A DNA stretch of 64,000 nucleotides, taken from Parcubacteria group bacterium CG10_big_fil_rev_8_21_14_0_10_36_14 (lineage in GTDB: Bacteria > Patescibacteriota > Patescibacteriia > GCA-002772895). This document shows, piece by piece, positions 32,626-58,673 of the stretch. The position numbers and the translations under genes are program-made. Positions within the stretch are counted from its first letter, which is position 1. Each line of letters begins with the position of its first letter. The stretch is from assembly GCA_002772895.1 (NCBI GenBank), contig PFCS01000050.1, forward strand, positions 6,728 to 70,727. The letters are read 5' to 3'. The notes beneath the pieces are model-generated. The model was not told the DNA's origin. It did not search any database and was given only the letters and a program-made list of their open reading frames with translations.

Positions 32626-35312
32626 AAGTTTGTAATTTTAGACAAAACGTCAGTCGCTATATCCTGACCATTATTTTCAAAAGTATTCTTTCCAAGCTTT
32701 GGAAATCCTCCGCCAAAAAATTCTTTCTTCTGATAGACGGATATTCCCGTCTGGTTGCCGGAAATTATATTGTCATATATTTTTGGTTCAGACAAGTCTT
32801 TCACAGCAATACCCATAACGCATCCATTAAGCTTATTACTAAAAATATCCGGATTAGAGTTTTCTCCCAAACTGATGCATTTATCGCCTGAACTTTTTAC
32901 TTCATTATTCGATATTTCCACGCTGGAACCGGAAATATCAATTCCGTCATTACCGTTACCATCAAAAATGTTGTCATAGATCTTACCACTTATAAAATCG
33001 CCGTCCAAACCGTCAAATCCATTTTTATAAAAATAAGAGTCCACTATTTCTACTTTTGCATTTTTAACATTCAATCCGTCATCCCCGCCGGCATATTTAA
33101 ATTGACAATTTTTTATTGAGATATCCGAACTGTGGCTTGCCAGGGCACCGGAAAAATGAATTCCATTTACGCGAGTATCCCCGCCATATTCAAATTCAAC
33201 ATATTCAAATTCACTCTTCTCCGGCACATCCACTATGCCAAAATTTCCCCAATAATCGTTGGAGTTCGCCGATAAAAATTTAATCGGATAGTCCTTACTT
33301 CCTTTAGCAATAACTGGGCTATAAGAACCGATTGATACTCCTTTTGCCATATAAAAAATTGCACCCGGCTCTATTTTTAGATGAATCCCCTTCGGGACTA
33401 TTAGCGTTTTATTAATATAATACGTACCCGCCGAAACATATGCGTCTCCATTTCCCGTAGCTTTAAACGAAGGATTTTTAGATATAAACTCATTAAGAGA
33501 TAGGTTGATATCATCTAAATTATTAAAATTACTATTATCTATATAAATTACTTCCGAACCCACTTTTTTACCGGTTAAAGAATTATCCAGCTCCATGTCA
33601 ACCGCAAAATCATCCGAATAAAATCCGGTTCCAATGCCTGCGGTAAAAAATATTTTATGGGTTACAGGCTGTAGAATAAAGCCTGTTCTTACATATTCAT
33701 CGTCATACTTATCAGCAGGAGGAACAAGTTTGGAAGATAGCACTATTTTCTGTTCTCCAAATTTAGCTTCTCCGTCCTTGTTAACAGTGTCTTTTTCTAA
33801 AAGAATATCGGCCGAGGTTAATTTTCCATCCATATCGCTGTCATAATAAGCGCTTACCAGAAAACCAGGAACAAGCCCGCTTATTTTTATTTCTTTTATC
33901 GTCATATCCACCGCGCTGTTTACCGTTATATCAGCCTCTGCAATTTCATAGTTTAAGAATGAATTTTTGTTATAGATAACCTTTGTAAAGGCTTCCGATT
34001 TTTTAAGATATTCTTTTATGAAATTAAAATTACTTTCTATCAAGCTCCTTGTTTCCTTATAACCCTTGATAAAAGTGCTATTTGAAAAATTCTTTTTCGA
34101 ATCCTTAAAAAATTCAATGCGGACGCTGTTGTATAAATCATCTATAAACTTTAAATCATCTTTAAGATTATCTTTGTCGCTAACATAATCCCAAGCCCTT
34201 TGGTTTATTTCAGTGGCAAAATCTGGAGATTCTAAAACGCGCGTTATAAGAGGATTAAAGAAAAGATAAGGAGAACCGATTGAAGCCAGGTCATTTCCCT
34301 CTGATTGCCAAGTAAAAAATTTAAATTTTCCATTTGTATTATCATAATACAAGTTCATGTTATGTCTCCAGTCCTCATGATTTCCACCAATTAAAAGTGT
34401 GTGCAAATACCACTCCATAAAACTTTTCTTATCTACAATATTAAAAATATTGTCATGAAATTCTTCTTGGTCTGCCTGGTTTACTAAATATGTAAGGCGA
34501 GCAATTGCCACGTAATTATCCGGTCTCTCGCCCGGATCAGCAACTCTTTTATCCCAATAATAAGGATCTTCAAAAATATATTTTTCATTTATATACCTTT
34601 CCGTAAAAAAATCAGTATCTCCAGAAAGTTTGTTTGTTTCCAGAAACTCTTTGCTCCATTGATTTATCTTATAATAAACTCCATATGCCTTGCCATTTAT
34701 CCTAAGCAACACAAAATCGCTGTCCAACACCTTTAATCCAATCTTTTCCGCTCTATAGTTATTGAACGGTTCAAGTAAATCACCGCCCACAATAAGATTT
34801 ATCGCACTCGTCCCTTCAAAAATCGCAGAATCACTAAATCTTATGCGCCATGATTTTTTATCATATCTCCAATGAAAATCAGAATTGCCTCTATATCTTA
34901 CCTCAACATTATAACTCTTACCCCCATATGAAAACTTGGCATTTATATACTTTTGATTTTCCTCAACAAACATCGCACCTTCTTCGGTTGGCAACGAATC
35001 ATTTATTTTCTTCCAATCTTTCTCGTCTATTATCAAATCGTAAACAGGCAGGTCTGGTTTCTTAAAAGAATAAATCAAATACGGCGCATCTTGGATCTTG
35101 CGCACAATTTTATCGGCCCATTTTGAATAAGGTGCTGGAAGTATGCTAAAAAGATATCTTTTTTTAATGCCATAATCATAAAAAAGAGATACAAGCACAA
35201 CCAAAACAATCAGATTGGCCACAAAAAGGCACCTGAAAAATATCTTTCTAAATACAGGGCTTCTTAATTTGTTATTTAATAACTTTATATATCTTAATAT
35301 CATCTGAATCAT
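32622..35312 (-). CDS. Large membrane-anchored/secreted protein: N-terminal CotH-family (atypical kinase) domain fused to a C-terminal right-handed parallel beta-helix (pectate-lyase/NosD-like) repeat domain.
   Basis: N-terminal TM segment (FFRCLFVANLIVLVVLVSLF). CotH-like core reads FSYGGKSYNVEVRYRGNSDFHWRYDKKSWRIRFSD...INLIVGGDLLEPFNNYRAEKIGLKV...LRINGKAYGVYY. C-terminal beta-helix repeats read NGFDGLDGDFISGKIYDNIFDGNGNDGIDISGSSVEISNNEV...GISVY. Paralog at 55840-58659. Confidence 0.65.
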   Translation of the reverse strand: MIQMILRYIKLLNNKLRSPVFRKIFFRCLFVANLIVLVVLVSLFYDYGIKKRYLFSILPAPYSKWADKIVRKIQDAPYLIYSFKKPDLPVYDLIIDEKDWKKINDSLPTEEGAMFVEENQKYINAKFSYGGKSYNVEVRYRGNSDFHWRYDKKSWRIRFSDSAIFEGTSAINLIVGGDLLEPFNNYRAEKIGLKVLDSDFVLLRINGKAYGVYYKINQWSKEFLETNKLSGDTDFFTERYINEKYIFEDPYYWDKRVADPGERPDNYVAIARLTYLVNQADQEEFHDNIFNIVDKKSFMEWYLHTLLIGGNHEDWRHNMNLYYDNTNGKFKFFTWQSEGNDLASIGSPYLFFNPLITRVLESPDFATEINQRAWDYVSDKDNLKDDLKFIDDLYNSVRIEFFKDSKKNFSNSTFIKGYKETRSLIESNFNFIKEYLKKSEAFTKVIYNKNSFLNYEIAEADITVNSAVDMTIKEIKISGLVPGFLVSAYYDSDMDGKLTSADILLEKDTVNKDGEAKFGEQKIVLSSKLVPPADKYDDEYVRTGFILQPVTHKIFFTAGIGTGFYSDDFAVDMELDNSLTGKKVGSEVIYIDNSNFNNLDDINLSLNEFISKNPSFKATGNGDAYVSAGTYYINKTLIVPKGIHLKIEPGAIFYMAKGVSIGSYSPVIAKGSKDYPIKFLSANSNDYWGNFGIVDVPEKSEFEYVEFEYGGDTRVNGIHFSGALASHSSDISIKNCQFKYAGGDDGLNVKNAKVEIVDSYFYKNGFDGLDGDFISGKIYDNIFDGNGNDGIDISGSSVEISNNEVKSSGDKCISLGENSNPDIFSNKLNGCVMGIAVKDLSEPKIYDNIISGNQTGISVYQKKEFFGGGFPKLGKNTFENNGQDIATDVLSKITNL

Positions 35313-37104
35313 ATACTTTTATTAACCAGTCTTCGCCTTCCAGACTGCTATTTTTTATAAAATCATAAATGCCTTCACTTTTATAGGCACCAAAATACAA
35401 ATAATCAATCTTATATTTATTGATCAAATAATGGATATTGCGCGGATACGCCATATACAATTTCGATATGTCGCCAAGCTTTTCCGCAATAAGCTTTTCT
35501 GCTGTTTTCTCATATTCTGGATCTTTTTTGAATTGGCTACCAATTCTTGTATCACTAAAATAATCTCCAAATAAATACAGCGAATCTTTATTTATTATCC
35601 CATCAAAAACATCTTGCGAAACATTAAACAGCTTATGGACAATAATCCACCGGTCATAAAGCTCTTCGGAAGATCCAGGAAACATCATTGGGTCTCCGTA
35701 CATTACTTTGCCAGAAGTATATACGGGCACCAAAAAATTTATAAAAAGCGACGGAGAAACAACGACCGCATCTTTTTCTATATTTTTATCCATCCATTCC
35801 AGCGAATTACTAATATTTTTAGGGATAGTATGAGCCGGATAATCCATTATCCCCCTATATATATTTACATGAACTGCGCGTGCTGTTATTATAAGCGCCA
35901 ACAAAATAAAACATCCGGTCACAATCTTTCGCCTCGTCGGATATTTCGCTTCCAACCACTTATATAAAGTATAGGCAAAGGCTATCCAAGCCAAAGCAAA
36001 TCCGTAATAAAATTGATGGTAATACCAATTTGTAGCAAAAGGCGAATATCCTCCAAAAAGCTGGATATTAAGCAGGAATATTGGCGCCAATGCAAAGCCT
36101 ATTAAATATATGGCAGTCTTTTTTTCTTTTATTGTTTTCCAAATAAGCAAAGCAAAAGCAACATACAGTAGATATTCGAAAACATGCCGTCCCAAGCGGA
36201 GCGTCCTGCCAAATTCGCCCCCTAAACGCAAGAATATGTCCGTTGACCACGGAAGGGACTTAAGAGCAAAGAAATTAAAGAAAAATAGCGATGAAATCAG
36301 CATGGCCAGCATTAAAATCCAAAAAATTCTTTTTGCCACCAAATGGTCTTTAAATAATAAAAATAATATCATCATTATCCCCAAAGCAGTCCAAATGTAC
36401 ATAGCGCTTGTTGGAAAAAAATAAACGAGCAAACCACTAAATATTCCGGCTAAGGCTATATACAACTTCTTTCCTTTTGTTATGGCTAAATATGTAAAAA
36501 GAAAGGTTAGAGAAAAAGGAATAAGCCCCGGCAATACCGATACGCTGTCATATTTATTCGTAAGGATGTGGATTGGCGGGCTACCCAAAAAAGTCAGCGT
36601 TCTTACAGAAATCTTTATCTGCTCCAATGTAATGGGAAATATCAGATAAAAAATATTTGCGGCTGAAGTAAAAACAAGAGAAGAAAAAATGCTAAAATAT
36701 CGGTTGCCGGTTATATTTTTTATAATCAAATAAAAAATTAAAAAGGTAAAAAAACCCACAATAAAATATCCCACCAAATAAAGATACTGCAGGGAGCCAA
36801 ATAGAGCAACCAGAGGAAAAAGAAGCCATGCATTATAATATGTACTCCAAAGCGCAGGCGCGTGCATATACTCATATGTTGCGCCGTCAGACCCCAGCCA
36901 ATGCCCATCCAAAAGATCCCTTATTTGCGGAGCAATAAAAGTGATTGGATCAGGCGCTCCTGGCACAAAATCACTATAAGGTAAACCATATTCTTTCAAT
37001 TTGAAAAAAGCTGACGCTTTAGTTAAATCAAAAATACAACCCGCAACTATGGCGGATAATAATACTGCTACTATAAGTAATGTCTTTTTCTTTTTTTTAT
37101 CCAT
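35272..37104 (-). CDS. Large polytopic membrane protein with C-terminal extracytoplasmic domain; candidate GT-C-fold glycosyl/oligosaccharyl transferase or polymerase.
   Basis: 610 aa, more than 12 predicted TM helices, then a ~200-aa soluble C-terminal domain (YPAHTIPKNISNSLEWMDKNIEKDAVVVSP...). No diagnostic motif recognised. Overlaps the downstream gene by 41 nt. Confidence 0.45.
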   Translation of the reverse strand: MDKKKKKTLLIVAVLLSAIVAGCIFDLTKASAFFKLKEYGLPYSDFVPGAPDPITFIAPQIRDLLDGHWLGSDGATYEYMHAPALWSTYYNAWLLFPLVALFGSLQYLYLVGYFIVGFFTFLIFYLIIKNITGNRYFSIFSSLVFTSAANIFYLIFPITLEQIKISVRTLTFLGSPPIHILTNKYDSVSVLPGLIPFSLTFLFTYLAITKGKKLYIALAGIFSGLLVYFFPTSAMYIWTALGIMMILFLLFKDHLVAKRIFWILMLAMLISSLFFFNFFALKSLPWSTDIFLRLGGEFGRTLRLGRHVFEYLLYVAFALLIWKTIKEKKTAIYLIGFALAPIFLLNIQLFGGYSPFATNWYYHQFYYGFALAWIAFAYTLYKWLEAKYPTRRKIVTGCFILLALIITARAVHVNIYRGIMDYPAHTIPKNISNSLEWMDKNIEKDAVVVSPSLFINFLVPVYTSGKVMYGDPMMFPGSSEELYDRWIIVHKLFNVSQDVFDGIINKDSLYLFGDYFSDTRIGSQFKKDPEYEKTAEKLIAEKLGDISKLYMAYPRNIHYLINKYKIDYLYFGAYKSEGIYDFIKNSSLEGEDWLIKVYDSDDIKIYKVIK

Positions 37105-37110
37105 ACTGCT

Positions 37111-38520
37111 CTACTTTGTTGGGCGCAAATAATTAAAAACTCGCTTTAATATAAGCTTCAAATGCGCGGGCGATCTTAAATCCCGTAAAACGTTAAAAAC
37201 AATTCTTGGCCTTAACCAAAACCCCAAAAAAATCTTCCTATGCCATTTTTTTAAAGTTTCTCTACTAATACCCTTTGGACAAACAGTAATATTATCAAAG
37301 CGTATCTTGTCCCAATCAACGCCATCAATCCGCCCACTTTCTTTGAGCCATGTATACATTTCCGATCCTGGGAGTGGAAGATAAAAATTAAACCCAGCCC
37401 TATCCAGCATAAGCTTTCTAGAAAATTCATAAGTTTGCCTCAAATCATCCTCATTTTCCTCGGGATAACCGATTATAAAAGCACCACCAGTCCTAAATCC
37501 CATTTTTCTAATGGCTTTTATTCTTTCTTCAACCATTTCTTTTTTTATGTGCTTATTCATATGGTCCATAATCCTCTGGGAACCAGACTCAATTCCTACA
37601 TGAATTGCATAAAACCCAGCTTTTTTCATTAATTTCAAAAGCTCGTCATCCAGCGTGTCCAAGCGAAGACCATTTGCACCAAAAAGCGAAATATTAAAAT
37701 TATTAGCCACTATTTTCTCAAGTACCTCTACTGCACGCGCCCTATGGGCTGTAAAATTATCATCCATAATATGAAATTCCTTGATACCATATTTTTCTAT
37801 CGCCCATTTCATTTCCTCTATAATATTATCCGCGCTTCTCATCCTCATATTTCTACCAACCACCGACTTTGAGGCGCAAAAAGTACAATTATAAGGGCAT
37901 CCTCGCGAAGTTACCAAATAGCCGATAGGGAGCTGTTTAAAGAAACTTCCGGCTGGTGCCTCGGGATATTCACCGGGTGGCATAAAGTCCCACGCCGGAA
38001 ACGGAAGACTATCTAGGTCTTCTTCAAAATAAACGGGATTAAAAAAAACTTCCCCTTCGCTTCTATAAACAAGTCCGGGAATATGGCTTAGGGGTATGTC
38101 TTTATTTTGAAATAATTTTTCAAGGAGCATCTTTAGACCTTTTTCTCCTTCACCCTTAAAAGCAAAGTCAATTTTATCAAAGTAGCCCATCAATTCTTTT
38201 GAATCTATAGCTGAAGCATGCGGACCACCAATTACCACAAGGACTTCTGGATTAGCTTCTTTTGCTACATTAATTTGCTCTTTTACTATTTTTATATTGT
38301 TTGAATACACCGTAACCCCTATGACATCCGGCTTTTTTTCCAAAACATATTCTTTAAATTTTTCTGGCGATACTTGTTTTAGGGTACAATCAAGAATTTC
38401 AATATTACTCCATCCATCTTTTCTTAAATATGAAGCAAGATAGCCCAAAGAAAGAGGCGGAGTTATTGCATAACCAAGAGTGCTAAAGGGTTTAACAAAT
38501 AAAATTTTCTGCTCTTTCAT
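37111..38520 (-). CDS. B12-binding-domain radical SAM enzyme (class B rSAM), paralog 2.
   Basis: N-terminal B12-binding-like region (ILFVKPFSTLGYAITPPLSLGYLASYLRKDG) and cluster motif TSRGCPYNCTFCAS. 469 aa. Confidence 0.8.
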   Translation of the reverse strand: MKEQKILFVKPFSTLGYAITPPLSLGYLASYLRKDGWSNIEILDCTLKQVSPEKFKEYVLEKKPDVIGVTVYSNNIKIVKEQINVAKEANPEVLVVIGGPHASAIDSKELMGYFDKIDFAFKGEGEKGLKMLLEKLFQNKDIPLSHIPGLVYRSEGEVFFNPVYFEEDLDSLPFPAWDFMPPGEYPEAPAGSFFKQLPIGYLVTSRGCPYNCTFCASKSVVGRNMRMRSADNIIEEMKWAIEKYGIKEFHIMDDNFTAHRARAVEVLEKIVANNFNISLFGANGLRLDTLDDELLKLMKKAGFYAIHVGIESGSQRIMDHMNKHIKKEMVEERIKAIRKMGFRTGGAFIIGYPEENEDDLRQTYEFSRKLMLDRAGFNFYLPLPGSEMYTWLKESGRIDGVDWDKIRFDNITVCPKGISRETLKKWHRKIFLGFWLRPRIVFNVLRDLRSPAHLKLILKRVFNYLRPTK

Positions 38521-38529
38521 AAAAAATCA

Positions 38530-39258
38530 TTACTTTTTAAATTTATTTATTACCATTCCGTACTCTTTTAGAGTTTTAATTAAATTCATCTTACTCTTCC
38601 CTTTTTTTAATCCGTAATTATAAACAAGAGGGCATTCATCAATTTTCTTAACAAATTTTCTTAATTTTAATAAAATCTCTAAATTGGCCGCAAAAGAATT
38701 TGTAGTAATAAAATTATTCCCATAAAATGCCAATGCTTTTTTTAGAATTTCTGCCCGATACGCGCGATAAAAAATAGAATAGTCCGTCACATTTGGCAAG
38801 TGGACCAATAACTTGACAATACTATTTACTACATTGCTACCAATGGTGCGGTACAACGGAAAGTTTTTATAACTTCCGCCCGCTATGTAGCGGGAACCTA
38901 TAACTATATCGCTTCCTAAATTTATTTTTTCTATCATCTCAGGCATTAAGGAAAGCTTACTCGTATTATCCGCTTCCATAATCAAAACGATATCGTCGTC
39001 CTCCGCATTAACACAAGCCGCCGTAATACCATCAAAAAAAGTCCTTGGTACGCCCAAATTTTTAGCGTGAACAAGAATTTCTAAATCCATCTGATTTTTA
39101 AAATTCATTGCTAGTTCTTTTGTTTTATCCGTGCTTCCATCGTCAACTAAAATTACTTTTTTATCAAAAATTAATTTTATATTCTTAATGCTAGACAATA
39201 AATCAACGACATTCTCGTCCTCATTATAGGCAGGGATAATTATAAATATTTTTTTCAT
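38530..39258 (-). CDS. Polyprenol-phosphate sugar synthase, GT2 (DPM1/GtrB-like).
   Basis: KIFIIIPAYNEDENVVDLLSSI...VILVDDGSTDKTKELA...VLIMEADNT are DPM1 hallmarks. 242 aa. It lies immediately downstream of the B12-rSAM gene (9-nt gap). Confidence 0.8.
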   Translation of the reverse strand: MKKIFIIIPAYNEDENVVDLLSSIKNIKLIFDKKVILVDDGSTDKTKELAMNFKNQMDLEILVHAKNLGVPRTFFDGITAACVNAEDDDIVLIMEADNTSKLSLMPEMIEKINLGSDIVIGSRYIAGGSYKNFPLYRTIGSNVVNSIVKLLVHLPNVTDYSIFYRAYRAEILKKALAFYGNNFITTNSFAANLEILLKLRKFVKKIDECPLVYNYGLKKGKSKMNLIKTLKEYGMVINKFKK

Positions 39259-39328: not shown

Positions 39329-40351
39329 CTATTTTTTAAAAAAATGTATATTATCTTTAATCCACTTATATAAAATATCAATTCCATCCTCATAATTAGT
39401 TATCGGTTCCCATCCCAAATTCAATTTAAGTTTAGAATTGTCACTTATAAAAATCTTCTGATCACCAATACGCATTTCTCCATGACCAAAATTCAGTTTT
39501 GTCCCCATTTTTTCTTCCAGTAGTCTAACAAAGCTAACTAAAGATAACGAATTTTCCACTCCTCCGCCAATGTTATAAATTTGTCCTGCAGTTATATTAA
39601 TATTTTTGATCGCCATATCATATGCCCTGATTAGATCATCAACAAATAATATATCTCGTACCTGAAAACCATCGCCATATATCATCATTGGTTGATCGGT
39701 CATAGCCACAATAATAAACCAAGCGACCCAGCCTTGATCTTCTTTGCCAAATTGACGATAACCATAAATACAGGACTGCCTAAAAACAACTGTCCGTAAA
39801 TTAAATATTCTGGAATAATCTCTAAAATATTGATCTGCCGAGCCCTTTGAACATCCATAAGGCGAATGAAAATCTAAAGGATACTCCTCTTTTATACCCC
39901 TTGGATAATCAGTGAGTTTGTAAGCATCACCGCTTAACTCAATCTTTTCATTTTCCATTCCACCATAAACCTTATTTGTTGAAGAATATATAATAACTGG
40001 ATTCTGAGCTGAAATCCTTACTGCTTCAAGAAGATTAAAGGCGCCTAGTGCATTACTTTCAAAATCTTCTCGCGGATTCAAAACTGATGAAGTAACTGCT
40101 ACTTGAGCGGCTAAATGTAGAACTACATCAAACCGATAATCAGAAAAAAGATGACTTAGTTCTTCAAAATTTCGAACATCGCCTTTAATAAATTTAAATT
40201 GCCCAAAAGTTTTTAACCATTCAAGATTTTTTTCAACCCCTACTCGACAAAGGTTATCAAAAATGACGACGTCGTGTCCGTCAAGTATAAATTTTTTAGC
40301 AGCATTTGAACCAATAAATCCCGCTCCGCCGGTAATTAATATTTTACTCAT
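39329..40351 (-). CDS. NAD-dependent SDR epimerase, CDP-paratose/tyvelose 2-epimerase-like.
   Basis: MSKILITGGAGFIGSNAAKKFILDGHDVVIFDNLCRVGVEKNLEWL closely parallels the RfbE/CDP-tyvelose-2-epimerase N-terminus (…FDNLSRKGAxxNLxWL). 340 aa. Confidence 0.7.
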   Translation of the reverse strand: MSKILITGGAGFIGSNAAKKFILDGHDVVIFDNLCRVGVEKNLEWLKTFGQFKFIKGDVRNFEELSHLFSDYRFDVVLHLAAQVAVTSSVLNPREDFESNALGAFNLLEAVRISAQNPVIIYSSTNKVYGGMENEKIELSGDAYKLTDYPRGIKEEYPLDFHSPYGCSKGSADQYFRDYSRIFNLRTVVFRQSCIYGYRQFGKEDQGWVAWFIIVAMTDQPMMIYGDGFQVRDILFVDDLIRAYDMAIKNINITAGQIYNIGGGVENSLSLVSFVRLLEEKMGTKLNFGHGEMRIGDQKIFISDNSKLKLNLGWEPITNYEDGIDILYKWIKDNIHFFKK

Positions 40352-41154
40352 AACTTTTTTGCTGTAATCGTATAATTAGTGCCATTGTTAAGTCCAGCTT
40401 CGTGCTGCTTTGTCCTTTTAATTATTGCCTTTAGCATGCTTTTGTTTGAAGAGCTAAACGGAACATATCCGATTGTTTTTATAAAAAATTGTTGAAGGGC
40501 TGAAAGTGGCATTAAAACGTCATACCACTTCATATGCTTTGGCGAATGAGTATATTTTATTTCCACCACTTCAAAACCGGCTGATTTTAAAAGCTCTTCC
40601 CATCTTTCTTTTGTAAACAGGTTATAATGCTTAAAAATCTTATTTACAGAATTCATATAAGCCTTAGCCAAAAAACCAAGCCCTAGCTTGTTAAAAATTT
40701 TTGGATAAAATAAATCCGTCATATAAAAATTAGAGTGTGTGGTAAAAAAGAACACGCCTCTCGGAGCCAACACCCTGTACGCCTCTCTTACTGTTTCTTC
40801 CACCGCGGGAATATGTTCTATGACGCAATTTGATATCGCCATACTAAAACGGTTGTCTGGAAAAAGCATTTTATGCGAAGGGACACATTTTACTTCCTTA
40901 TATATACCGGATTTCTCCGCTCCTCGGCATGCACTCTCAGATATGTCCAGTCCATAAATTTCCCTGAGCACACCTTTGTCTTCCTGTTCTTTGCCCTCTA
41001 AAATCATTTTCAAAAAACTGCCATCGCCACAGCCTAAATCAAGCATCGGATAAGAAAAATCCTTACCAACCATTTCAGTATATTCCCACACCCTGCAAAG
41101 CGCATGGGAAATAGAATATTTTTTCGATGCTTTATTATAAAAATTATCAAGCAT
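40348..41154 (-). CDS. Class I SAM-dependent methyltransferase.
   Basis: LDLGCGDGSFLKMI (motif I), ...GLDISESA... and ...SNCVIEHIP...LAPRGVFFFTT. Overlaps the SDR gene by 4 nt. Confidence 0.75.
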   Translation of the reverse strand: MLDNFYNKASKKYSISHALCRVWEYTEMVGKDFSYPMLDLGCGDGSFLKMILEGKEQEDKGVLREIYGLDISESACRGAEKSGIYKEVKCVPSHKMLFPDNRFSMAISNCVIEHIPAVEETVREAYRVLAPRGVFFFTTHSNFYMTDLFYPKIFNKLGLGFLAKAYMNSVNKIFKHYNLFTKERWEELLKSAGFEVVEIKYTHSPKHMKWYDVLMPLSALQQFFIKTIGYVPFSSSNKSMLKAIIKRTKQHEAGLNNGTNYTITAKKL

Positions 41155-41268: not shown

Positions 41269-42219
41269 TTATATTTTTTTAAGCAATCTGTTTATCGCCC
41301 TAGAAAGCTTTAGCCTCAATCTAGCCGGCAACCAGAAAAAAAGCCTATCCCGCAACCTCCTAAAAAGGGAAAATTTATTTTCAATTTCTTTCACATATTC
41401 TACCACTTTACGATAATCGTCTTTTTTAAATACAATGCCTTTTTCGGCAGGGCTAGAAGATATTATCATTTCCATTCCGCCAGGAAAAGCCGCACGATTG
41501 CTGAATTTTATAATTTTAAATCCAGACTTTTCTAAAACCTTACCGATAGTATATAAAGAATAGCTGAAAGGGTGACCTATTTGAAAAAATACATCAGGCC
41601 GCTTTTTGACGTTCAGTATATTAGGCACGCCAATATAAACTTTTCCGGAATCTTTTAATATGCTTTTGATGAATTCCAGCTTTTCTAAAGGATCGGGGAA
41701 ATGCTCAAAGGTATGGTGCATGGCAATAAAATCAAACTTGTTTTTGTTTTCCGGTTGGCTGGCAAAATCATCAAAATTGATATTCAAGAGGTTTAAATTA
41801 TAATATTTTTTTCCGGCTTCAACATCAAGTTGCGAAAGCTCTATACCCCAAATATTACAATGTTTCTTCTCTTGTATTATATGGAGAAGCGTCCCAAACC
41901 CACATCCGATGTCCAAAACATTATCTCCCTCTTTTAGATACTCTTCCAAAAAATCATATACTTTTCCCTTTAAGCGCAAATTGCTTTCTTGTTTTTCCGC
42001 AAACTGCGATACATCTTTCAAGCCATGGCTATCGCGTAGAAATTCTTCTTTATGGAATTCTAAATATTCCTCCTCCGAGGGGCGTGGATTTATATAGACA
42101 AGCGAACAATTCTTGCAGATAACATTAATTAAACCTTTACTTAGATTTCCCTTCGTATAAATCGTCTCAGTATTATCTTCTCCGCAAAGCGGACATTTTA
42201 TATAAATATTTTGCTGCAT
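41269..42219 (-). CDS. Zinc-ribbon-containing class I SAM methyltransferase (paralog 2 of 28737-29636).
   Basis: CPLCGEDNTETIY...VICKNCSLVYINPRP, LDIGCGFGTLLHIIQEKKHC, ...HHTFEHFPDPLEKL...GKVYIGVPNI. Confidence 0.7.
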   Translation of the reverse strand: MQQNIYIKCPLCGEDNTETIYTKGNLSKGLINVICKNCSLVYINPRPSEEEYLEFHKEEFLRDSHGLKDVSQFAEKQESNLRLKGKVYDFLEEYLKEGDNVLDIGCGFGTLLHIIQEKKHCNIWGIELSQLDVEAGKKYYNLNLLNINFDDFASQPENKNKFDFIAMHHTFEHFPDPLEKLEFIKSILKDSGKVYIGVPNILNVKKRPDVFFQIGHPFSYSLYTIGKVLEKSGFKIIKFSNRAAFPGGMEMIISSSPAEKGIVFKKDDYRKVVEYVKEIENKFSLFRRLRDRLFFWLPARLRLKLSRAINRLLKKI

Positions 42220-42224
42220 ATTTT

Positions 42225-44066
42225 TTATAGATAATTTCTAGCCCAGACTTGAAATGTCATAAGCGACCATATAGTATTCAATCCATACTCTTTTTTATCA
42301 ATATGATTATTTAGTATATCATTTATTACCTCCCAATTAAATAACTCTGCAGTTTTTGAAGAATAACCGGGAGAAAGAATCTCACAGACCATCGGTTTCA
42401 AATCAGTACGCAACCACTTTGCCGCAGGCGAGAAAAATCCTCGCTTCCTCTCTTCTAAAACAAACTCCGGCAGAATATCCGCAAAGGCATTTTTTAAACA
42501 TTTTTTTCCTTGATATCTACTATTTAATTTATATTTTGACGGTATCCTAAAAGCTAGCTCCACAAGTTCTTTATCTAAAAAAGGCACTCTTTCTTCAAGT
42601 CCGTGAGCCATTGTCAGTTTATCACTACGAATAAGTGACTCATCCGGAAGCCAAGTTTTTAAATCAGTCAATATCATTTGATTAACGTTATCTTTTACAC
42701 TTTTTTCAAAATACCTGGTATAAGCATTCCTTACAGAATAAGCATTATTGAAATCATTATTTAAAAATCTTGATATAACATCTTCTTTCTGCGCCATAAA
42801 AAGCCAAAAACGGTCCAATCCGTGTTCACTAGATAACTTTTTTGCCAACTCTTCTTTACCAAAAATTCCTCCGATAGATTGAACAATTTTTTTATTCATT
42901 AACAACGGGAAAAACATTCGCGCTCTTTCTATAAAATAGTTATAATAATACCTATCATAACCCCCAAAAGTTTCATCTCCCCCGTCTCCCCCTAAAACAA
43001 CTGCGACCTGATTTTTTGCTTCTTTCGCAAGAATATAAGTTGCTACTTGGATATGATTGGAGACCGGTTCATCCATAGCAATAATACAATTTTCAAAATT
43101 ATCCTTAACGTCTTTTGCCGTAATAGTAATTGGAGTATGCGCTGTATTAAAATACTCGGCAGTTTTTTTCGCTAAGTTAAAATCCGCATTAAATTTTTCT
43201 TTTTCAATCTCTGTTTCAAATCCAACTGAAAATGTTTTTATCGGTCCCTTTGCGCTCTTTGTCATTGCCGCGCAAATAATACTTGAATCAAGCCCGCCTG
43301 AAAGAAAAAGTCCAACCGGCCTATCAGAAATAAGCTGACGTTCTACTGCACGTTCCACTTGTTCTCTAATCAATATCCGTAGATCAGCCTCACTCTCTTT
43401 TAGATATGTCCCCTCTTCTAAATCGTAATAACTTTCTATTTTTAAATTATTATCCTTTACAATTGCGAAATGTCCGGGCTGTAATTTCATAATTCCTTGC
43501 CACATCGTTTCTGGACCTAAGCAATATAAAAAACGCAAGTATTTGTTCAATGCATCAATATTTAAATCTTTCCTTACATTTTCATATTCCAAAATTGCTT
43601 TTACTTCTGATGAAAAAATAAATTTTCTATTGTTATGCCAGTAATATAGTGGCTTTACGCCAGATTGATCACGCGCCAAAAAAAGCTCTTTCTTTTGCTT
43701 ATCCCAAATAGCAAAAGAAAAAATTCCATTAAATTTTTTCAGCGCATCTTCCCCCCATTTTATAAAACTGTATAGAACAACCTCCGTATCGGAATCAGAT
43801 TTAAAATTAAATTCTAATAATTCTTTTTTTATTTCTTTAAAATTATATAACTCGCCGTTATAGGTAATAACAAATCTTCCATCAGCGCTCTTCATTGGCT
43901 GACTGGCCTTATCACTCAAATCAATAATAGCTAACCGCCTATGTCCTAAAGAAATATTTTCATCCAAAAAAATACCCCCGCCGTCAGGTCCGCGGTGAGT
44001 AATTTTTGTATTCATCTTTTTTATCAAGTCTTCGTCGCGCCAATTAAAACCGTTTATTCCACACAT
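42225..44066 (-). CDS. asnB: Asparagine synthetase B-type glutamine amidotransferase (AsnB/WbpS-like); putative glycan carboxyl amidation.
   Basis: Class II amidotransferase N-terminus MCGINGF (Cys2 nucleophile; start trimmed to this Met), ...HRGPDGGGIF...GHRRLAIIDL... and the PP-loop SGGLDSS. Confidence 0.85.
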   Translation of the reverse strand: MCGINGFNWRDEDLIKKMNTKITHRGPDGGGIFLDENISLGHRRLAIIDLSDKASQPMKSADGRFVITYNGELYNFKEIKKELLEFNFKSDSDTEVVLYSFIKWGEDALKKFNGIFSFAIWDKQKKELFLARDQSGVKPLYYWHNNRKFIFSSEVKAILEYENVRKDLNIDALNKYLRFLYCLGPETMWQGIMKLQPGHFAIVKDNNLKIESYYDLEEGTYLKESEADLRILIREQVERAVERQLISDRPVGLFLSGGLDSSIICAAMTKSAKGPIKTFSVGFETEIEKEKFNADFNLAKKTAEYFNTAHTPITITAKDVKDNFENCIIAMDEPVSNHIQVATYILAKEAKNQVAVVLGGDGGDETFGGYDRYYYNYFIERARMFFPLLMNKKIVQSIGGIFGKEELAKKLSSEHGLDRFWLFMAQKEDVISRFLNNDFNNAYSVRNAYTRYFEKSVKDNVNQMILTDLKTWLPDESLIRSDKLTMAHGLEERVPFLDKELVELAFRIPSKYKLNSRYQGKKCLKNAFADILPEFVLEERKRGFFSPAAKWLRTDLKPMVCEILSPGYSSKTAELFNWEVINDILNNHIDKKEYGLNTIWSLMTFQVWARNYL

Positions 44067-44184
44067 TTTATTTTTTTGCAATTAAATATAAAATATCTCT
44101 CCTTGCCGAAAAAATTTCCGACTTTATTAAGATTCAATTTTTTAAAAACTACCTTTATATTATTTTAAACACAAATAGAATAGT

Positions 44185-45120
44185 TTACTTCTTCTGTAAT
44201 ATTCTTTGTGAAATAAATTTTAAAATTTTTTTAGTGTATGCGGGAATTACATAAAAAGAATCAGAAATTATCCTTTTTCTAATATATTTTTTAATTTCTT
44301 TATAAGAATTCTCGTTTTCTAAATTTAATTCTAAAATATTACTTTCTATTCTAGTAGCAATTACTTGAATACGAGAGGGTTTTTTAACATTCCTACTAAT
44401 TATTTTAAACCCACCATTTTTTAAAACCCTACTTAATGTAGCTGGCGAATAATTGTAATAATGCCAAAAATCGAAAAAATGCCTTACTCGCCGCTCAAAA
44501 TTTAGAATATTCGGAACTTCTATATATAAAAATCCATTCAGATTTAAAAAAGTACTAATCTTTTTTAATATTTGGACTGGCTCAGAAAAATGTTCAAAAA
44601 CATGATGCATTAAGATAATATCAAATTTTTCCGCGCCTCTTTCTTTATCATAAAATTCCTCAAAAGTGCCATGATAAATATCAAGACCATACTTGGCTAT
44701 CGCGTAACAGGCTGAAGTAGCCGGCTCTATCCCCTTAGTTTTGCAACCATAGCTATTTTTAATGTCTTTCAAAAATAAACCAAAACCGGAACCGATTTCC
44801 AATACATTATATTCTGGTTTTAAAAATTTTGATAAAAAAGTCAAATTAATATTTTCACCCTTATTCTTTTCCAATACGTGTTGCATATATTCTTCTATCT
44901 TTTCTTCAGTATCTAACGCGAAACAACTGGCAACATAATTTTCTTTAGAAAAACCCATTACATCATTCGGCGCCTTTCTCGGATTTATATAAACTAAGCC
45001 ACACTCTTTGCAAATAACATTATTAAACTTCACAAGCTTTTCCCCTCTTTTAAAAATACCCTTATTGTAAATAAGCTCCGAACTACTATCGTTACAAATC
45101 GCACAAGTTATTTTTTTCAT
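44185..45120 (-). CDS. Zinc-ribbon-containing class I SAM methyltransferase (paralog 3).
   Basis: CAICNDSSSELIY...VICKECGLVYINPRK, LEIGSGFGLFLKDI, ...HHVFEHFSEPVQIL...GFLYIEVPNI. Confidence 0.7.
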   Translation of the reverse strand: MKKITCAICNDSSSELIYNKGIFKRGEKLVKFNNVICKECGLVYINPRKAPNDVMGFSKENYVASCFALDTEEKIEEYMQHVLEKNKGENINLTFLSKFLKPEYNVLEIGSGFGLFLKDIKNSYGCKTKGIEPATSACYAIAKYGLDIYHGTFEEFYDKERGAEKFDIILMHHVFEHFSEPVQILKKISTFLNLNGFLYIEVPNILNFERRVRHFFDFWHYYNYSPATLSRVLKNGGFKIISRNVKKPSRIQVIATRIESNILELNLENENSYKEIKKYIRKRIISDSFYVIPAYTKKILKFISQRILQKK

Positions 45121-45171
45121 AATTTATGATTTTACAAAAATTCTCTTGAAACTCCACCTATTCCACGCGCC

Positions 45172-45918
45172 TTATTTCTTTGTAATTAAATATAGAGTGT
45201 CTCTTCTCGATTGAAAAATCTCTGACAATAACCAACTTAAAAATTTTGGAAATTTTTTAAAATTAAACATCCATTGTTTTTTAAAATAAGTATTATGCAT
45301 ATGGACTTCCATGTCTTTAAATCCAACAATCTTTGCCATTTTCTTTAATTCATCCGCAGTAAATTCTCTAGTATGTCCATACGGCTGACCGTTCACGAAA
45401 AAATCATCAAAATCCCAATATACGCTTTTTCCAAACAAAAATCTTGCTTGTTTTAAAAAAGTCGCCAAATTAGGAGTTGATAAAACCAAGATCCCGCCCG
45501 GCTTAAGAGTTTTATATATTTTTTCTAAAAATCTTTTTTGACTATAGCCTAAATGTTCTATAACGTTTTCAGAAATAATCGCATCATAAGTTCCCTCTTC
45601 TAAACTACAATCAAAAAGATCTTCCACTTTTATATCCAATCCAAACTTTTGCCACAAGTCTTCTACGCCCTCTATCCCCCATTCTTCCAAAATGTACTTA
45701 TCAATCCCACTTGTTTTTGCTCCTAATAAATTTAAGGTATGTACCAAGATACCGAGACCACTTCCAACTTCTAATATTTTTTTATTTTCAAAACTACCCA
45801 TCCTTTCCTTGAATAAAGACAGTGTATTCAAGTGCTCCTTCTCCTCTTTTTTCCATCTTTTAGAAAGAGGCGATAAATCATGATACGATTTTTCTAATTT
45901 TATTTTAAAATCTTCCAT
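45172..45918 (-). CDS. Class I SAM-dependent methyltransferase.
   Basis: ILEVGSGLGILVHTL (motif I), ...AIISENVIEHLG...LKPGGILVLSTPN. Confidence 0.75.
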   Translation of the reverse strand: MEDFKIKLEKSYHDLSPLSKRWKKEEKEHLNTLSLFKERMGSFENKKILEVGSGLGILVHTLNLLGAKTSGIDKYILEEWGIEGVEDLWQKFGLDIKVEDLFDCSLEEGTYDAIISENVIEHLGYSQKRFLEKIYKTLKPGGILVLSTPNLATFLKQARFLFGKSVYWDFDDFFVNGQPYGHTREFTADELKKMAKIVGFKDMEVHMHNTYFKKQWMFNFKKFPKFLSWLLSEIFQSRRDTLYLITKK

Positions 45919-45919: not shown

Positions 45920-46924
45920 TTAATTTCCTGCTTTTATATATTCTCCCATTTTTTTAACAAGCGACTCTAAAGAATGATTTTCTTTAACAATTTTGCGCGA
46001 TTCTTCTATCGATAAAAAATTAATATTTTTTATATATTCTGCAATCGCTTCCGGCGTTTCTTCTTTTGGAAAATCCGGTAATCCAATCGCTCTGGCATTG
46101 TTTGACGTTGTTACTACTTGCAGTCCGGCAAGCATCGCCTCTATCATTGTTTTATCAATAGTTTCTAAAGCCATATTTACCATAATCTGATATTGAGGAT
46201 ATATTTTTAAAAGTTCGGGCATTGGCACAGAACCCATCAGTTTTACCCTATCTACAAGATTTAATTCTTTAATTAAATCCTTTATTTCTTTTGCATAGTT
46301 ATCCTCTAATTCACGACCATAAACTGTTAGGGTGTATTCATCAGGTAAAAATTTTAGCGCTTTTATTACCAAGTCGAGACGTTTTGAGCGACATACCCTG
46401 TGTATCGATAAGAGTTCTGTCTTTGCCCTTCTCTCGTTCTGAGGCGTAGCATTAAAATCCCAAAAACGCATGTCTATCCCATGTCCAGTAACTATCTTTT
46501 TAGGATCTCCTTCATACTGAGGCATACTATTTTTTGTTGCGCAAAAAAGACGTTTACAAAGCCAATGACTAACTCGTAAAGGAAAATGCATTGTATAATG
46601 GGTGTACCATAAATAAACAGGGGTATTTTTTATCCGCCAAAATAAAGCACCGGGTACAATCCATTTTGGATTCATATGAACAAATACCCTATCATAATCA
46701 AGGCTTAAAATAAGTTTTAAAAATATCAGCATTGACTTAAACTTACTAAATCCTTTTTCACGGCCTAAAGAATAAACTGGAAAATTGTCAGTATAAACCT
46801 CTTTCTCATGACAAATAACACTTATGTCAAAGCCTTGGCGTATAAACTCTTTCACCCAAAGAGAAGCGAATGCAAAATCATCATCTCGCTCATGTATCTT
46901 TGTGGTTATAAATAAAAGTTTCAT
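45920..46924 (-). CDS. Glycosyltransferase, GT-B fold (GT4/GT1-like).
   Basis: C-terminal half ...LLSIHRVCRSKRLDLVIKALKFLPDEYTLTVYG...MIEAMLAGLQVVTT matches GT4 C-domain topology. 334 aa. Confidence 0.65.
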   Translation of the reverse strand: MKLLFITTKIHERDDDFAFASLWVKEFIRQGFDISVICHEKEVYTDNFPVYSLGREKGFSKFKSMLIFLKLILSLDYDRVFVHMNPKWIVPGALFWRIKNTPVYLWYTHYTMHFPLRVSHWLCKRLFCATKNSMPQYEGDPKKIVTGHGIDMRFWDFNATPQNERRAKTELLSIHRVCRSKRLDLVIKALKFLPDEYTLTVYGRELEDNYAKEIKDLIKELNLVDRVKLMGSVPMPELLKIYPQYQIMVNMALETIDKTMIEAMLAGLQVVTTSNNARAIGLPDFPKEETPEAIAEYIKNINFLSIEESRKIVKENHSLESLVKKMGEYIKAGN

Positions 46925-48009
46925 ATATTAAGATGTTCGGCTAATATGCCCATTATCCTTTTGCTTGCATTACCATCCCAGCCCATTATTTCTCCTTCTC
47001 TTTTTTTCCACTCACCATTCAAAACTCTTCCCACAGCTTCAAATATTTTTTCTTTATCTCTTCCCACAACTTCATTTGTTCCAAGTTCGCAAGTTACCGG
47101 TCTTTCTGTTTCTTCGCGTAAAGTAATACATGGCACATTAAAAATAGTCGTCTCTTCCTGTATTCCGCCGGAATCAGTTAAAACGAATTCGGCATTTTTT
47201 TGTAAATTTATGAAATCCAAATATGGTTGAGGTCCTAGAATAGTAAAATTTGCAGTCAAATTAAAATCTTTTAACGCTTTTTCTGTTCTAGGATGAAGCG
47301 GACAAATAACGGGTATACTTTTATTTATTTCATTGATAGCAAAAAGTAATTCTGCCAGATGTTTACCATCGCTTACGTTTTCCGTGCGATGCAAAGTTAA
47401 CAAAGCATAACCTTTCGGAGTTAAAGAATTTTTCACAAGAGCATCAGACCTCTCAGATAAATCACCAAAATGTAAAAGTGTATCAATCATCACGTTACCA
47501 CTAAAAAATACTTTATCCTCTGTAATGCCCTCTGCTTTCAAATTATTAACAGCGCTATTTTCGGTTACAAAAAGAAAATCTGACAGATGGTCTGTCATAA
47601 CTCTATTTGCTTCTTCCGGCATTTTCCAATTAAAACTACGGAGTCCTGCTTCAACGTGGGCGACTGGAACATTTTCACTGGCTCCAGCCAAGGCTCCTGC
47701 TAAAGTAGAATTAACATCTCCGACAACAACTATCAAATCCGGTTTTAATGCTCTGATATATAAAGAAAGCATTTTTAAGGTCTTACCGATCTGCTCCCTT
47801 CTCGATCCAGAGCCTATGCCCAAGTTTGCCAAAGGTCTTGGCATTTTGAACTCTCTAAAAAATACTTCCGAAAGTTCGTCATCATAATGCTGTCCCGTAT
47901 GTATTATTCCTATTTGCAACTTATCCGCATATAAAGAAGCCGCCCTTGTAAGGGCAGATATCTTCATAAAATTAGGTCTGGCTCCAGCTATAAATAGGAT
48001 TTTCTTCAT
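46921..48009 (-). CDS. wecB: UDP-N-acetylglucosamine 2-epimerase, non-hydrolysing (WecB/MnaA family).
   Basis: MKKILFIAGARPNFMKISALTRAA...IHTGQHYDDELSEVFF...DLIVVVGDVNSTLAGALAGASENVPVAHVEAGLRSFN is the WecB signature. 362 aa. Confidence 0.85.
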   Translation of the reverse strand: MKKILFIAGARPNFMKISALTRAASLYADKLQIGIIHTGQHYDDELSEVFFREFKMPRPLANLGIGSGSRREQIGKTLKMLSLYIRALKPDLIVVVGDVNSTLAGALAGASENVPVAHVEAGLRSFNWKMPEEANRVMTDHLSDFLFVTENSAVNNLKAEGITEDKVFFSGNVMIDTLLHFGDLSERSDALVKNSLTPKGYALLTLHRTENVSDGKHLAELLFAINEINKSIPVICPLHPRTEKALKDFNLTANFTILGPQPYLDFINLQKNAEFVLTDSGGIQEETTIFNVPCITLREETERPVTCELGTNEVVGRDKEKIFEAVGRVLNGEWKKREGEIMGWDGNASKRIMGILAEHLNI

Positions 48010-48070: not shown

Positions 48071-49198
48071 CTAATTTTCCACAAATTTTAAAATATTTTC
48101 CGCTCTATTATCCCAAGAAAACCATTTTGCGAATGTCTCAGTATCTCTTACCGAGCCTGAATACTTTTCATAATTTGATAATACTTCTTCTATCTTATTA
48201 CTCAAATCATCTGGATTGTCCGGTTCAAAAAAAACAACCTCTTTTTCACTCACCACCTCCCTTATGGATGGTAAATCAGACGCAATCACCGGTTTACCAG
48301 AAGCCATATATTCAAAAAGTTTTAGAGGTGAAGTCTCGCGTAAAGAAATACGTTCTCTGGCAGTATTTGGCAAAACTAAAACATCTGACGCTCTTAAAAA
48401 ATAAGGTATCTTTTTATATTCTTGGTGCCCTAATATCAAAGTAGCATCATCGTTACCAAAATCTTCACGAAATTTTTTTTCATCTTCCCTTGTGCCACCA
48501 ACAAAGACAGTCAAAACATCTCTGCTCATTTTTCTTGCCGCCTTCCCAAGTGTTTCCGCCCCCTTCCAAGAATACAGGTGTCCTGTATATAAAACTATTT
48601 TTTTATCTTCTGGTAAATTCAATATCTTTCTGGCTTCAGCTTTATTTTCTTTAATATTGAAAAAATCAAAATCAACTCGATTTGTTGCTACTAATATTTT
48701 TCCTTCATTAATGCCAAAGCTATTTATCAACTCCTGCTTTTTAAAAGCGTTAGTTGTGATAAATTTATAAATTTTTTTAAATGCAAATCTTGTTATTTGA
48801 TGCTGATTTGGAGAATCGTGTATTTCATACACTACTTTTTTTCCAAATAAAGATAGAAAAAAGCTTGACCAAAAATCACGGCTAAAAAATAAATCAGCTT
48901 GAGAAAAAGCCAATCTTAAAGAAACAAAAATCGCAAAAGAAATATTCTGAAAATAAAAGGCAGCTCTACCAAAAAGCCATTGCATCGGCAAAAAATCCAA
49001 AGAAAATATTTTTTTAATTTTAAAATTCTTTTCTACACCATAAAAATCAAATGGATTTTTTTTAATATAATTAATCCGCCAAGGCGACCACAAAACAACC
49101 TGGTGCTTTTTGCCCCAGGCCTCGCACATTTTCATAATTTGTCCGCCATGCGCCTTTTCGGTCGGCATCCTGACATTAGCGATATAAAAAATCTTCAT
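48071..49198 (-). CDS. Glycosyltransferase, GT4.
   Basis: ...VLYTGHLYSWKGAETLGKAARKM... and ...LFEYMASGKPVIASDLPSIREVV...FFEPDNPDDL (the E-x7-E region). Confidence 0.8.
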   Translation of the reverse strand: MKIFYIANVRMPTEKAHGGQIMKMCEAWGKKHQVVLWSPWRINYIKKNPFDFYGVEKNFKIKKIFSLDFLPMQWLFGRAAFYFQNISFAIFVSLRLAFSQADLFFSRDFWSSFFLSLFGKKVVYEIHDSPNQHQITRFAFKKIYKFITTNAFKKQELINSFGINEGKILVATNRVDFDFFNIKENKAEARKILNLPEDKKIVLYTGHLYSWKGAETLGKAARKMSRDVLTVFVGGTREDEKKFREDFGNDDATLILGHQEYKKIPYFLRASDVLVLPNTARERISLRETSPLKLFEYMASGKPVIASDLPSIREVVSEKEVVFFEPDNPDDLSNKIEEVLSNYEKYSGSVRDTETFAKWFSWDNRAENILKFVEN

Positions 49199-58659: not shown

Positions 58660-58673
58660 AACAAAAAACAACC

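Follow-up and report, generated by a model that had tools for sequence, protein, structure and literature searches.

Sugar C-methyltransferases of the TylC3, TcaB9, KijD1 and MtmC type, which belong to antibiotic deoxysugar clusters, combine an N-terminal four-cysteine zinc ribbon (PF08421), a helical linker, a class I S-adenosylmethionine (SAM)-dependent methyltransferase (MTase) domain and a C-terminal domain (PF08484), the last of which is said, from structural work on TcaB9, to hold the dTDP moiety. Among surface-glycan systems, the O-glycosylation cluster of Tannerella forsythia (wzx, pse, gtfs, mtfJ/O/Y, asnB, wecC, wecB), with its three mtf genes and a nonulosonic acid pathway, yields 4-O-methyl-ManNAc-uronamide, a residue with an O-methyl group as well as an amide, and AsnB has been proposed as the acetamidino-forming enzyme for nonulosonic acids (PMC6120980). 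The amidotransferases WbpS, WbqG and PGN_1234 turn acetamido-uronic acids into uronamides (PMC7468200, PMC6025236). In the Pgf, GtrB/PgtC2 and ArnC/ArnT systems, a GT-A synthase of undecaprenyl-phosphate (Und-P) sugars feeds a GT-C transferase, and this is an established mechanism (PMC12041528). The present analysis concerns a 64-kb stretch of DNA (the window) from a bacterium of the Parcubacteria group, part of the Candidate Phyla Radiation (CPR), and within it a dense block of four genes at positions 41269-45918, in which two MTases with N-terminal zinc (Zn) ribbons flank an AsnB-family amidotransferase and a further MTase follows. The source is a tiny groundwater bacterium; CPR/Patescibacteria live attached to other cells, and to our knowledge almost nothing is known of their surface chemistry. 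More than 60 kb of this genome is given over to glycan synthesis and tailoring.

The block itself is real and constitutes a fairly ordinary glycan-tailoring segment of a known general kind. As an overall explanation we favor, with some reserve, a tailoring segment of composite make-up that forms part of a very large locus for cell-surface glycans. Its Zn-ribbon MTases are shortened relatives of the TylC3-type enzymes that are abundant in nature and have been repeatedly fused to GT-C-type membrane proteins. They connect two separately studied fields, namely the C-methyltransferases of antibiotic deoxysugars and the methylation of surface glycans.

The tailoring block and its zinc-ribbon methyltransferases

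The genes of the block and those of its surroundings that bear on its interpretation are as follows:

41269-42219, minus strand: ZnR-MT1, a short Zn-ribbon class I SAM methyltransferase (316 aa)
42225-44066, minus strand: AsnB-family glutamine-dependent amidotransferase (613 aa from ATG 44066; Pfam GATase_7 and Asn_synthase)
44185-45120, minus strand: ZnR-MT2, a second short Zn-ribbon methyltransferase (311 aa)
45172-45918, minus strand: MT-b, a plain class I SAM methyltransferase with no Zn ribbon (248 aa; Pfam Methyltransf_23/11)
45920-46924, minus strand: GT4-family glycosyltransferase, a cassette member (Pfam Glycos_transf_1)
46921-48009, minus strand: WecB-type non-hydrolysing UDP-GlcNAc 2-epimerase, which opens the cassette (TIGR00236, 304.9 bits against a cut-off of 210)
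48071-49198, minus strand: GT4 glycosyltransferase, a conserved upstream partner of ZnR-MT1 orthologs
40348-41154, minus strand: MT-a, a class I SAM methyltransferase downstream of ZnR-MT1 (268 aa)
28737-29636, minus strand: ZnR-MT3, the third Zn-ribbon paralog (299 aa)

A preliminary description, made from the letters and open reading frames (ORFs) of this DNA, had given the four-gene order Zn-ribbon MTase, AsnB, Zn-ribbon MTase, MTase and a total of eight class I MTases, and both statements hold: the ORFs are present in this order on the minus strand, and the count is exact when all 54 ORFs that reach 150 aa are considered (22136, 28737, 40348, 41269, 44185, 45172, 49955 and 52470), alongside three genes for B12-binding radical SAM (B12-rSAM) enzymes (19053, 37111 and 60043). 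The 54 ORFs were annotated by domain searches, with the remainder assigned by all-against-all paralogy. With AsnB taken as its mechanical ORF (42225-44081), the intergenic gaps from ZnR-MT1 through AsnB and ZnR-MT2 to MT-b are 5, 103 and 51 bp; the 3′ end of MT-a overlaps the start of an epimerase/dehydratase gene (39329-40351) by 4 bp, and the ZnR-MT3 gene overlaps that of a Wzx flippase (27371-28747). Nine contigs, put together independently from several ENA and JGI samples, show the same order of genes, and the block is therefore not an assembly artefact. A scan for promoters and terminators returned signals that were not above shuffled expectation and, therefore, we make no claims regarding operon boundaries.

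Pfam recovers class I MTase domains in ZnR-MT1, ZnR-MT2 and MT-b, with matches to Methyltransf_23/11/12/25 for the Zn-ribbon proteins. As the preliminary description had proposed, three paralogs (28737, 41269 and 44185) share an N-terminal CxxC...CxxC signature, and they show 32-35% mutual identity in an all-against-all comparison. In ZnR-MT1 the ribbon is formed by Cys9, Cys12, Cys35 and Cys38 and is followed by a Rossmann domain (residues 100-254) and two basic amphipathic C-terminal helices (269-315). Across 30 diverse aligned homologs, neither the four ribbon cysteines nor H173 and H216 vary; hence, the CxxC...CxxC signature is not a chance pattern. An AlphaFold model of a short Zn-ribbon MTase (pLDDT 92.4, pTM 0.90) displays a small β ribbon, a helical linker, the Rossmann domain and two long C-terminal helices. 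The tail of ZnR-MT1 carries a net charge of +9 and, of all parts of the protein, shows the highest helical hydrophobic moment.

The preliminary description had likened the N-terminus of these proteins to the zinc-binding domain of the TylC3-type enzymes and had noted the lack of the usual C-terminal domain. The simple profile check of this likeness failed: neither PF08421 nor PF08484 matches the full-length Zn-ribbon MTases at E<=0.01 in Pfam, whereas a control of 417 aa (L034, from a Levyibacteriota genome), which has the canonical long form, scores 76 bits against PF08421 and 198 bits against PF08484. We set this negative aside as a decisive criterion, since profile-profile and fold comparisons are positive. 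In a Foldseek search of the PDB the top 18 matches are MtmC, KijD1 and TcaB9 (E 6e-16 to 7e-14 over 320-334 aligned columns), with generic MTases coming only thereafter (~1e-11, ~200 columns). The profile of the short family matches TcaB9 at 1.4e-17 and aligns to MtmC over residues 7-255, Zn ribbon included, and ZnR-MT2 finds MtmC (4rv9) with phmmer at E 1.2e-5. With hhalign, the short family aligns to the control (97.9%) over residues 7-263 against 11-268, with both CxxC pairs in register. The alignment ends at residue 268 of the control, where PF08484 (253-410) starts. Thus, the likeness of the N-terminus stands as homology of the ribbon, though not as membership of PF08421, and the C-terminal domain is missing as had been supposed.

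The two invariant histidines, H173 and H216, align with H181 and H225 of TcaB9, which we take to be its catalytic or active-site histidines, partly from the titles of PDB entries for its mutants (H181N, E224Q, H225N, Y222F and Y76F). The TcaB9 residues E224 and Y222 are not conserved, the short family having G/A and F there. Certain observations speak against too close a kinship: PF08421 fails to match even the isolated N-termini of the Zn-ribbon MTases at E<=10; the MTase domain is, by the family profile, nearer in sequence to the uncharacterised MTases 3cc8, 3dli and 3l8d than to TcaB9; and the histidine pair is present in these three proteins too and, hence, does not fix the chemistry. Taken together, the comparisons indicate that the short Zn-ribbon MTases are relatives of the TylC3 family rather than members in the Pfam sense; they have the TylC3-type ribbon and SAM domain and are devoid of the C-terminal domain. 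They are ~100 residues shorter than the TylC3-type enzymes and have the two basic amphipathic helices in place of PF08484.

The family is large: 18,933 cluster representatives match its profile at E<=1e-30, and among the best 150 of these most are 290-350 aa long and match from the ribbon onward, while ~30 exceed 500 aa. No characterised member was found for this family of ~19,000 sequence clusters. A search for related loci, seeded with 11 closer sequences and using patterns that amount to generic MTase motifs, yielded 27 loci with true Zn-ribbon forms, spread over CPR, Nitrospirota, Elusimicrobia, Planctomycetota, several Proteobacteria, Acidobacteriota and others. In 24 of these 27, glycosyltransferases (GT1/GT2), sugar epimerases or dehydratases, DegT, Wzx or Bac_transf lie near the short Zn-ribbon MTase. 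Thus, unlike the TylC3-type enzymes of antibiotic deoxysugar clusters, the short forms reside in surface-glycan loci of many phyla, and the glycan role assumed in the preliminary description is borne out, their neighborhoods marking them as enzymes of glycan clusters rather than as ubiquinone or tRNA MTases. An identity as a quinone or tRNA MTase was considered and rejected, the NCBIfam matches to UbiG, MetW and CmoB being weak, far below their cut-offs and attributable to generic class I similarity.

A further difference from the TylC3 type lies in domain fusions, which, like the gene content, homology, domain loss and synteny, are established directly. All three subfamilies of the window have orthologs elsewhere that are fused to polytopic membrane proteins (L and P numbers designate individual loci and proteins). 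Orthologs of ZnR-MT1, 42-49% identical over their full length, are joined to a family of membrane proteins represented in the window by a 610-aa protein (P0055, and P0061 of locus L006) or to a PMT_2 (GT-C) domain (P0057); an ortholog of ZnR-MT2 (47.5%) is fused to a PMT_2 GT-C domain (P0120), and one of ZnR-MT3 (52%) lies C-terminal to such a domain (P0074, L003:5652-7955). In P0060 ZnR-MT1 is fused to a GT4 like that of 48071-49198, and further partners include a nucleotidyltransferase (P0086), a radical SAM/SPASM enzyme (P0106) and additional MTase copies. At the extreme stands the 2793-aa protein P0063, in which TPR repeats, a pair of GT2 domains and one GT1 domain accompany several class I MTase domains, one of them a Zn-ribbon form.

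The cassette around the amidotransferase

Comparison with other genomes shows that the block is composite. In another Parcubacteria assembly (GCA_022012845.1; loci L087/L090), WecB, GT4, MT-b and AsnB are contiguous and 85%, 83%, 80% and 85% identical, respectively, to their counterparts in the window. There, no ZnR-MT2 stands between MT-b and AsnB, which abut without a gap, and a nearby ZnR-MT1-like gene is only 41% identical. Conversely, the WecB-GT4-MT-b-AsnB cassette is wholly absent from an Uhrbacteria locus (L006), where the order is MTase, GT4 (48071-like), a fusion of ZnR-MT1 to the 610-aa family, epimerase, GT2, ZnR-MT3, Wzx and CotH. A gene like the GT4 of 48071 (37-56% identity) lies immediately upstream of the ZnR-MT1 orthologs in L006 and L088, a GT1 gene directly precedes the ortholog in L002, and the adjacency of ZnR-MT3 and Wzx is kept in L006 and L089. 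AsnB is directly beside a ZnR-MT1 ortholog in L086, and one gene separates the two in L001. From these gene orders, the conserved units are the WecB-GT4-MT-b-AsnB cassette, on the one hand, and GT4 (48071), ZnR-MT1 and the 610-aa protein, on the other, with ZnR-MT2 being an insertion into the former in this genome. A fixed three-gene unit of Zn-ribbon MTase, AsnB and Zn-ribbon MTase was rejected given the loci L087/L090 without ZnR-MT2 and L006 without the cassette. Hence, the flanking of AsnB by Zn-ribbon MTases, to which the preliminary description had drawn attention, is true of the window but contingent. In L086 (a Logan contig of SRR22388041, 1-7139), the pair of AsnB (66% identical) and the ZnR-MT1 ortholog comes after genes for an O-carbamoyltransferase (Carbam_trans_N/C), an SGNH/GDSL protein and an OTCase-like carbamoyltransferase, in what looks like another dense tailoring block with a different chemistry.

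The mechanical ORF of AsnB runs from TTG 44081 and encodes 618 aa. N-terminal nucleophile (Ntn) amidotransferases need their nucleophilic cysteine at position 2, and the ATG at 44066 begins a protein reading MCGINGF with Cys at this position. Gene callers use this start in other assemblies (613 aa), and it is almost certainly the functional one. The protein has the full AsnB architecture (PF13537, GATase_7, 146 bits; PF00733, Asn_synthase, 298 bits) with the Ntn Cys2 (MCGI) and the PP-loop SGGLDSS intact, and its best PDB matches are 7ylz (a hydroxyamidotransferase) and 1ct9 (E. coli AsnB). With WbpS, WbqG and PGN_1234 it shares the Ntn-Cys glutaminase, the PP-loop synthetase, a C-terminal extension and a full-length alignment to TIGR03108 (7-613 against 2-624 of 628), as well as the setting of a glycan cluster in which it adjoins a WecB/WbpI-type epimerase.

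In the proposed mechanism, WecB would yield a UDP-ManNAc-type donor, the GT4 would transfer the residue and MT-b would methylate it, and AsnB would turn a carboxylate of the glycan into a carboxamide through ATP-dependent adenylation followed by attack of glutamine-derived ammonia. The T. forsythia cluster is a close functional precedent for this cassette, since it comprises the same kinds of genes: both have WecB, GT-B transferases, several SAM MTases, an AsnB of ~605-613 aa, a nonulosonic acid pathway and Wzx. However, the MTases of T. forsythia, a member of the Bacteroidota, are 90, 167 and 213 aa long and are not Zn-ribbon proteins, and its cluster includes wecC, for which the CPR window holds no intact counterpart.

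The amidation of a glycan has to be weighed against the view that AsnB is a housekeeping asparagine synthetase that lies among glycan genes incidentally. Several facts are unfavorable to the glycan role: the protein passes the asparagine synthase model TIGR01536 (470 bits against a cut-off of 267) and fails the WbpS-family model TIGR03108, eps_aminotran_1 (464.1 against 816.9); no intact uronate-forming dehydrogenase (WbpA, WbpO or WecC) is present in the window or in the L090 locus; and outside close relatives AsnB is near the Zn-ribbon MTase in only 3 of the 27 loci. The sole NDP-sugar dehydrogenase of the window (13489-14280, minus strand) is truncated at both ends (263 aa, covering positions 70-295 of a 413-position model) and is probably a gene remnant. 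Yet AsnB is 85% identical within the cassette of another genome, where it abuts MT-b; in the window it lies next to ZnR-MT1, and it recurs near ZnR-MT1 orthologs in L086 and L001. Moreover, its C-terminal extension is covered end to end by TIGR03108, and known WbpS enzymes carry the same style of annotation (PMC7468200). Because AsnB is conserved inside the cassette, we regard a housekeeping role as quite improbable and retain a glycan-directed AsnB, for which an enzyme encoded elsewhere may supply the carboxylate or another residue, such as a NeuB/NeuC nonulosonic acid, may carry it. A role in forming acetamidino groups of nonulosonic acids, as proposed in PMC6120980, was considered as well. 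The designation as an AsnB/WbpS-type amidotransferase in the preliminary description is, thus, sound with regard to the AsnB family and the full-length TIGR03108 alignment, but not with regard to the WbpS cut-off or an accompanying uronate dehydrogenase. In loci L003 and L089, a complete dehydrogenase is fused to a cytidylyltransferase of the type found at 29638 in the window, in proteins of 680-682 aa.

Candidate membrane partners and a proposed action on lipid-linked sugars

The fusions described above direct attention to the following genes of the window:

35272-37104, minus strand: 610-aa membrane protein with 10 transmembrane (TM) segments, of an unannotated family
58684-60033, minus strand: 449-aa, 9-TM protein, PMT_2-related
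38530-39258, minus strand: small GT2, of the polyprenyl-phosphate-sugar synthase type

The 610-aa protein has ~4 detectable homologs (from two word-indexed homolog searches), and its family shows invariant acidic residues in the first loop (D66, D73 and E78). In CPR, members are fused to GT2 (L002:2541-5165 and L006:888-3443), and ZnR-MT1 orthologs are found directly upstream of a member in L002 and L005. We infer that the 610-aa protein is a GT-C-like partner of ZnR-MT1 and might represent a new GT-C-like family. The 449-aa protein, which itself has no Pfam match, aligns to the PMT_2 halves of P0057, P0120 and P0074 with BLAST E-values of 4e-15 to 4e-29. The only NCBIfam matches of the small GT2 are to ArnC, PpgS, AglJ, a Dol-P-hexose transferase and PgfS, all below cut-off.

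These genes fall into two modules. Module 1 (32622-39258, minus strand) consists of the GT2 (38530), a B12-rSAM enzyme (37111), the 610-aa membrane protein (35272) and a CotH-kinase/β-helix protein (32622), and module 2 (55840-62178) of a GT2 (61483), a B12-rSAM enzyme (60043), the PMT_2-like protein (58684) and a CotH/β-helix protein (55840, plus strand). The two are paralogous, with gene pairs that are 28%, 31% and 35% identical. Such a composition suggests the making of a lipid-linked sugar, its tailoring by radical-SAM enzymes and a GT-C-mediated transfer, for which the large secreted CotH/β-helix proteins could be acceptors or companions. Like the Pgf, GtrB/PgtC2 and ArnC/ArnT systems (PMC12041528), the window places small ArnC/PgfS-like GT2 genes beside polytopic membrane proteins, one of them PMT_2-like. 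It differs from them in that the associated tailoring enzymes are SAM MTases and B12-rSAM proteins, the former sometimes fused to GT-C, and in that the 610-aa partner is not of a recognised GT-C family.

In the Arn pathway a lipid-linked sugar is modified before its transfer. For the window, we can offer a model of what the enzymes use as substrates, which atom receives the methyl group, whether the sugar is lipid-linked at that stage, and what carboxylate AsnB uses. The Zn-ribbon MTases, which share ancestry with the TylC3/TcaB9 NDP-hexose C-3-methyltransferases and have lost the NDP-binding domain, would act as SAM-dependent glycan methyltransferases. Because of this loss, the amphipathic tail and the fusions, we infer that their substrates are polyprenyl-linked sugars or oligosaccharides at the cytoplasmic side of the membrane rather than free NDP-sugars; machinery of the Wzx or GT-C type would then export and transfer the methylated lipid-linked sugars. 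O-methylation is the most likely reaction, since it is the common form of glycan methylation and a histidine base suits it. That such lipid-linked methylation is coupled to GT-C transfer is a tentative proposal. An evolutionary extension of it, in which the short family arose from TylC3-like enzymes by exchanging the nucleotide-binding domain for a membrane tail, with methylation of Und-linked sugars and dedicated GT-C proteins including the 610-aa family, is likewise possible but doubtful. If it were true, a widespread and undescribed route to methylated surface glycans would emerge, along with a 610-aa GT-C-like family common in CPR. The recurrent GT-C fusions at any rate furnish a concrete hypothesis on the site and substrate of the Zn-ribbon MTases and mark the unannotated membrane proteins as candidate glycosyltransferases. 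Should the enzymes instead be ordinary O-methyltransferases acting on NDP-sugars, the block would merely be another tailoring cluster.

What counts against the membrane model is that the tail of ZnR-MT3 is short and only weakly basic, that the 610-aa protein has no Pfam or NCBIfam match and a sole PDB profile match, to AftA, at E 9.2, and that its AF2 model (pLDDT 53) is too poor for a fold search. Two other accounts of the Zn-ribbon MTases compete with it. They might be true TylC3-like NDP-hexose C-3-methyltransferases that produce cytoplasmic sugar nucleotides with branched chains and manage to hold the nucleotide though the C-terminal domain is missing, as could be argued from their nearest fold and profile matches (TcaB9, KijD1 and MtmC), from the invariance of the equivalents of H181 and H225, and from a short-chain dehydrogenase/reductase (39329-40351) with a weak resemblance to dTDP-glucose 4,6-dehydratase (197 bits against a cut-off of 365). 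However, the paralogs do not each have a clear 4-keto-sugar pathway to go with them, E224 and Y222 are not conserved, and the absence of the entire PF08484 domain together with repeated fusion to GT4 and to polytopic membrane proteins of the GT-C kind makes C-methylation of NDP-sugars in the TylC3 manner unlikely. Alternatively, the MTases could act on non-sugar substituents, i.e., amino or phospho head groups or carboxylates, by N-methylating phosphoethanolamine or aminoethylphosphonate to choline-like groups, capping phosphates with methyl or forming methyl esters; AglP of Haloferax, for instance, methyl-esterifies a lipid-linked hexuronic acid. The TagF-like glycerophosphotransferases, CDP-alcohol phosphatidyltransferase, cytidylyltransferases and phosphodiesterases of the window and related loci fit this account, as do the phosphoenolpyruvate (PEP) mutase and thiamine pyrophosphate (TPP)-dependent enzyme of locus L005. 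Nevertheless, the window holds no PEP mutase, no particular MTase is tied to a particular head group, the likeness to PMTs is one of generic class I fold, and the strongest specific relatives are sugar MTases, so that we give this account little credence and prefer methylation of lipid-linked glycan intermediates.

Extent of tailoring and other pathways in the window

The preliminary description had envisaged up to about eleven methyl-type modifications on the encoded glycan, counting three putative radical SAM methylases with the eight MTases. Three B12-rSAM genes are indeed present, but against the P-methyltransferase, BchE and HpnJ models their products score far short of the cut-offs. The total presupposes one glycan and one methyl group per enzyme and is an over-reading, because several pathways are encoded, because the B12-rSAM assignments are below cut-off, and because in T. 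forsythia two MTase genes are required for a single methyl group (PMC6120980). The pathways of the window comprise NeuC/NeuA/NeuB-like enzymes, two TagF-like glycerophosphotransferases with cytidylyltransferases, Wzx, an initiating Bac_transf and the two GT2-rSAM-GT-C-type modules. The nonulosonic (sialic-like) acid pathway is distributed over 16134-18994 (minus strand), 29638-30342 (minus strand) and 30455-31648 (plus strand) and consists of a NeuC-like enzyme, a CMP-sugar synthetase-like enzyme, NeuB, a second NeuC, which passes the equivalog cut-off (373 bits against 236), and a second cytidylyltransferase.

Other associations are more isolated. Within the glycan locus lies a polyphosphate-related pair (14321-15767, minus strand), made up of a DUF4956 membrane protein and one with a VTC domain. 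A 505-aa protein (53191-54708, minus strand) joins a FemAB-like GNAT domain (Acetyltransf_6) to a partial DegT-like region, has no NCBIfam match and sits between a UDP-GlcNAc 3-dehydrogenase-like GFO oxidoreductase (54710) and a NodS-like MTase (52470), a neighborhood that hints at a 3-amino-3-N-acyl sugar. In the CPR locus L005 (a Logan contig of SRR22388118, 1-17014), orthologs of ZnR-MT1 and ZnR-MT3 and three members of the 610-aa family co-occur with two Phosphodiest genes, a fusion of a CTP-transferase to PEP mutase and the TPP-dependent enzyme (PF02776/PF02775), which is probably a phosphonopyruvate decarboxylase, a gene set that suggests phosphonate-decorated glycans.

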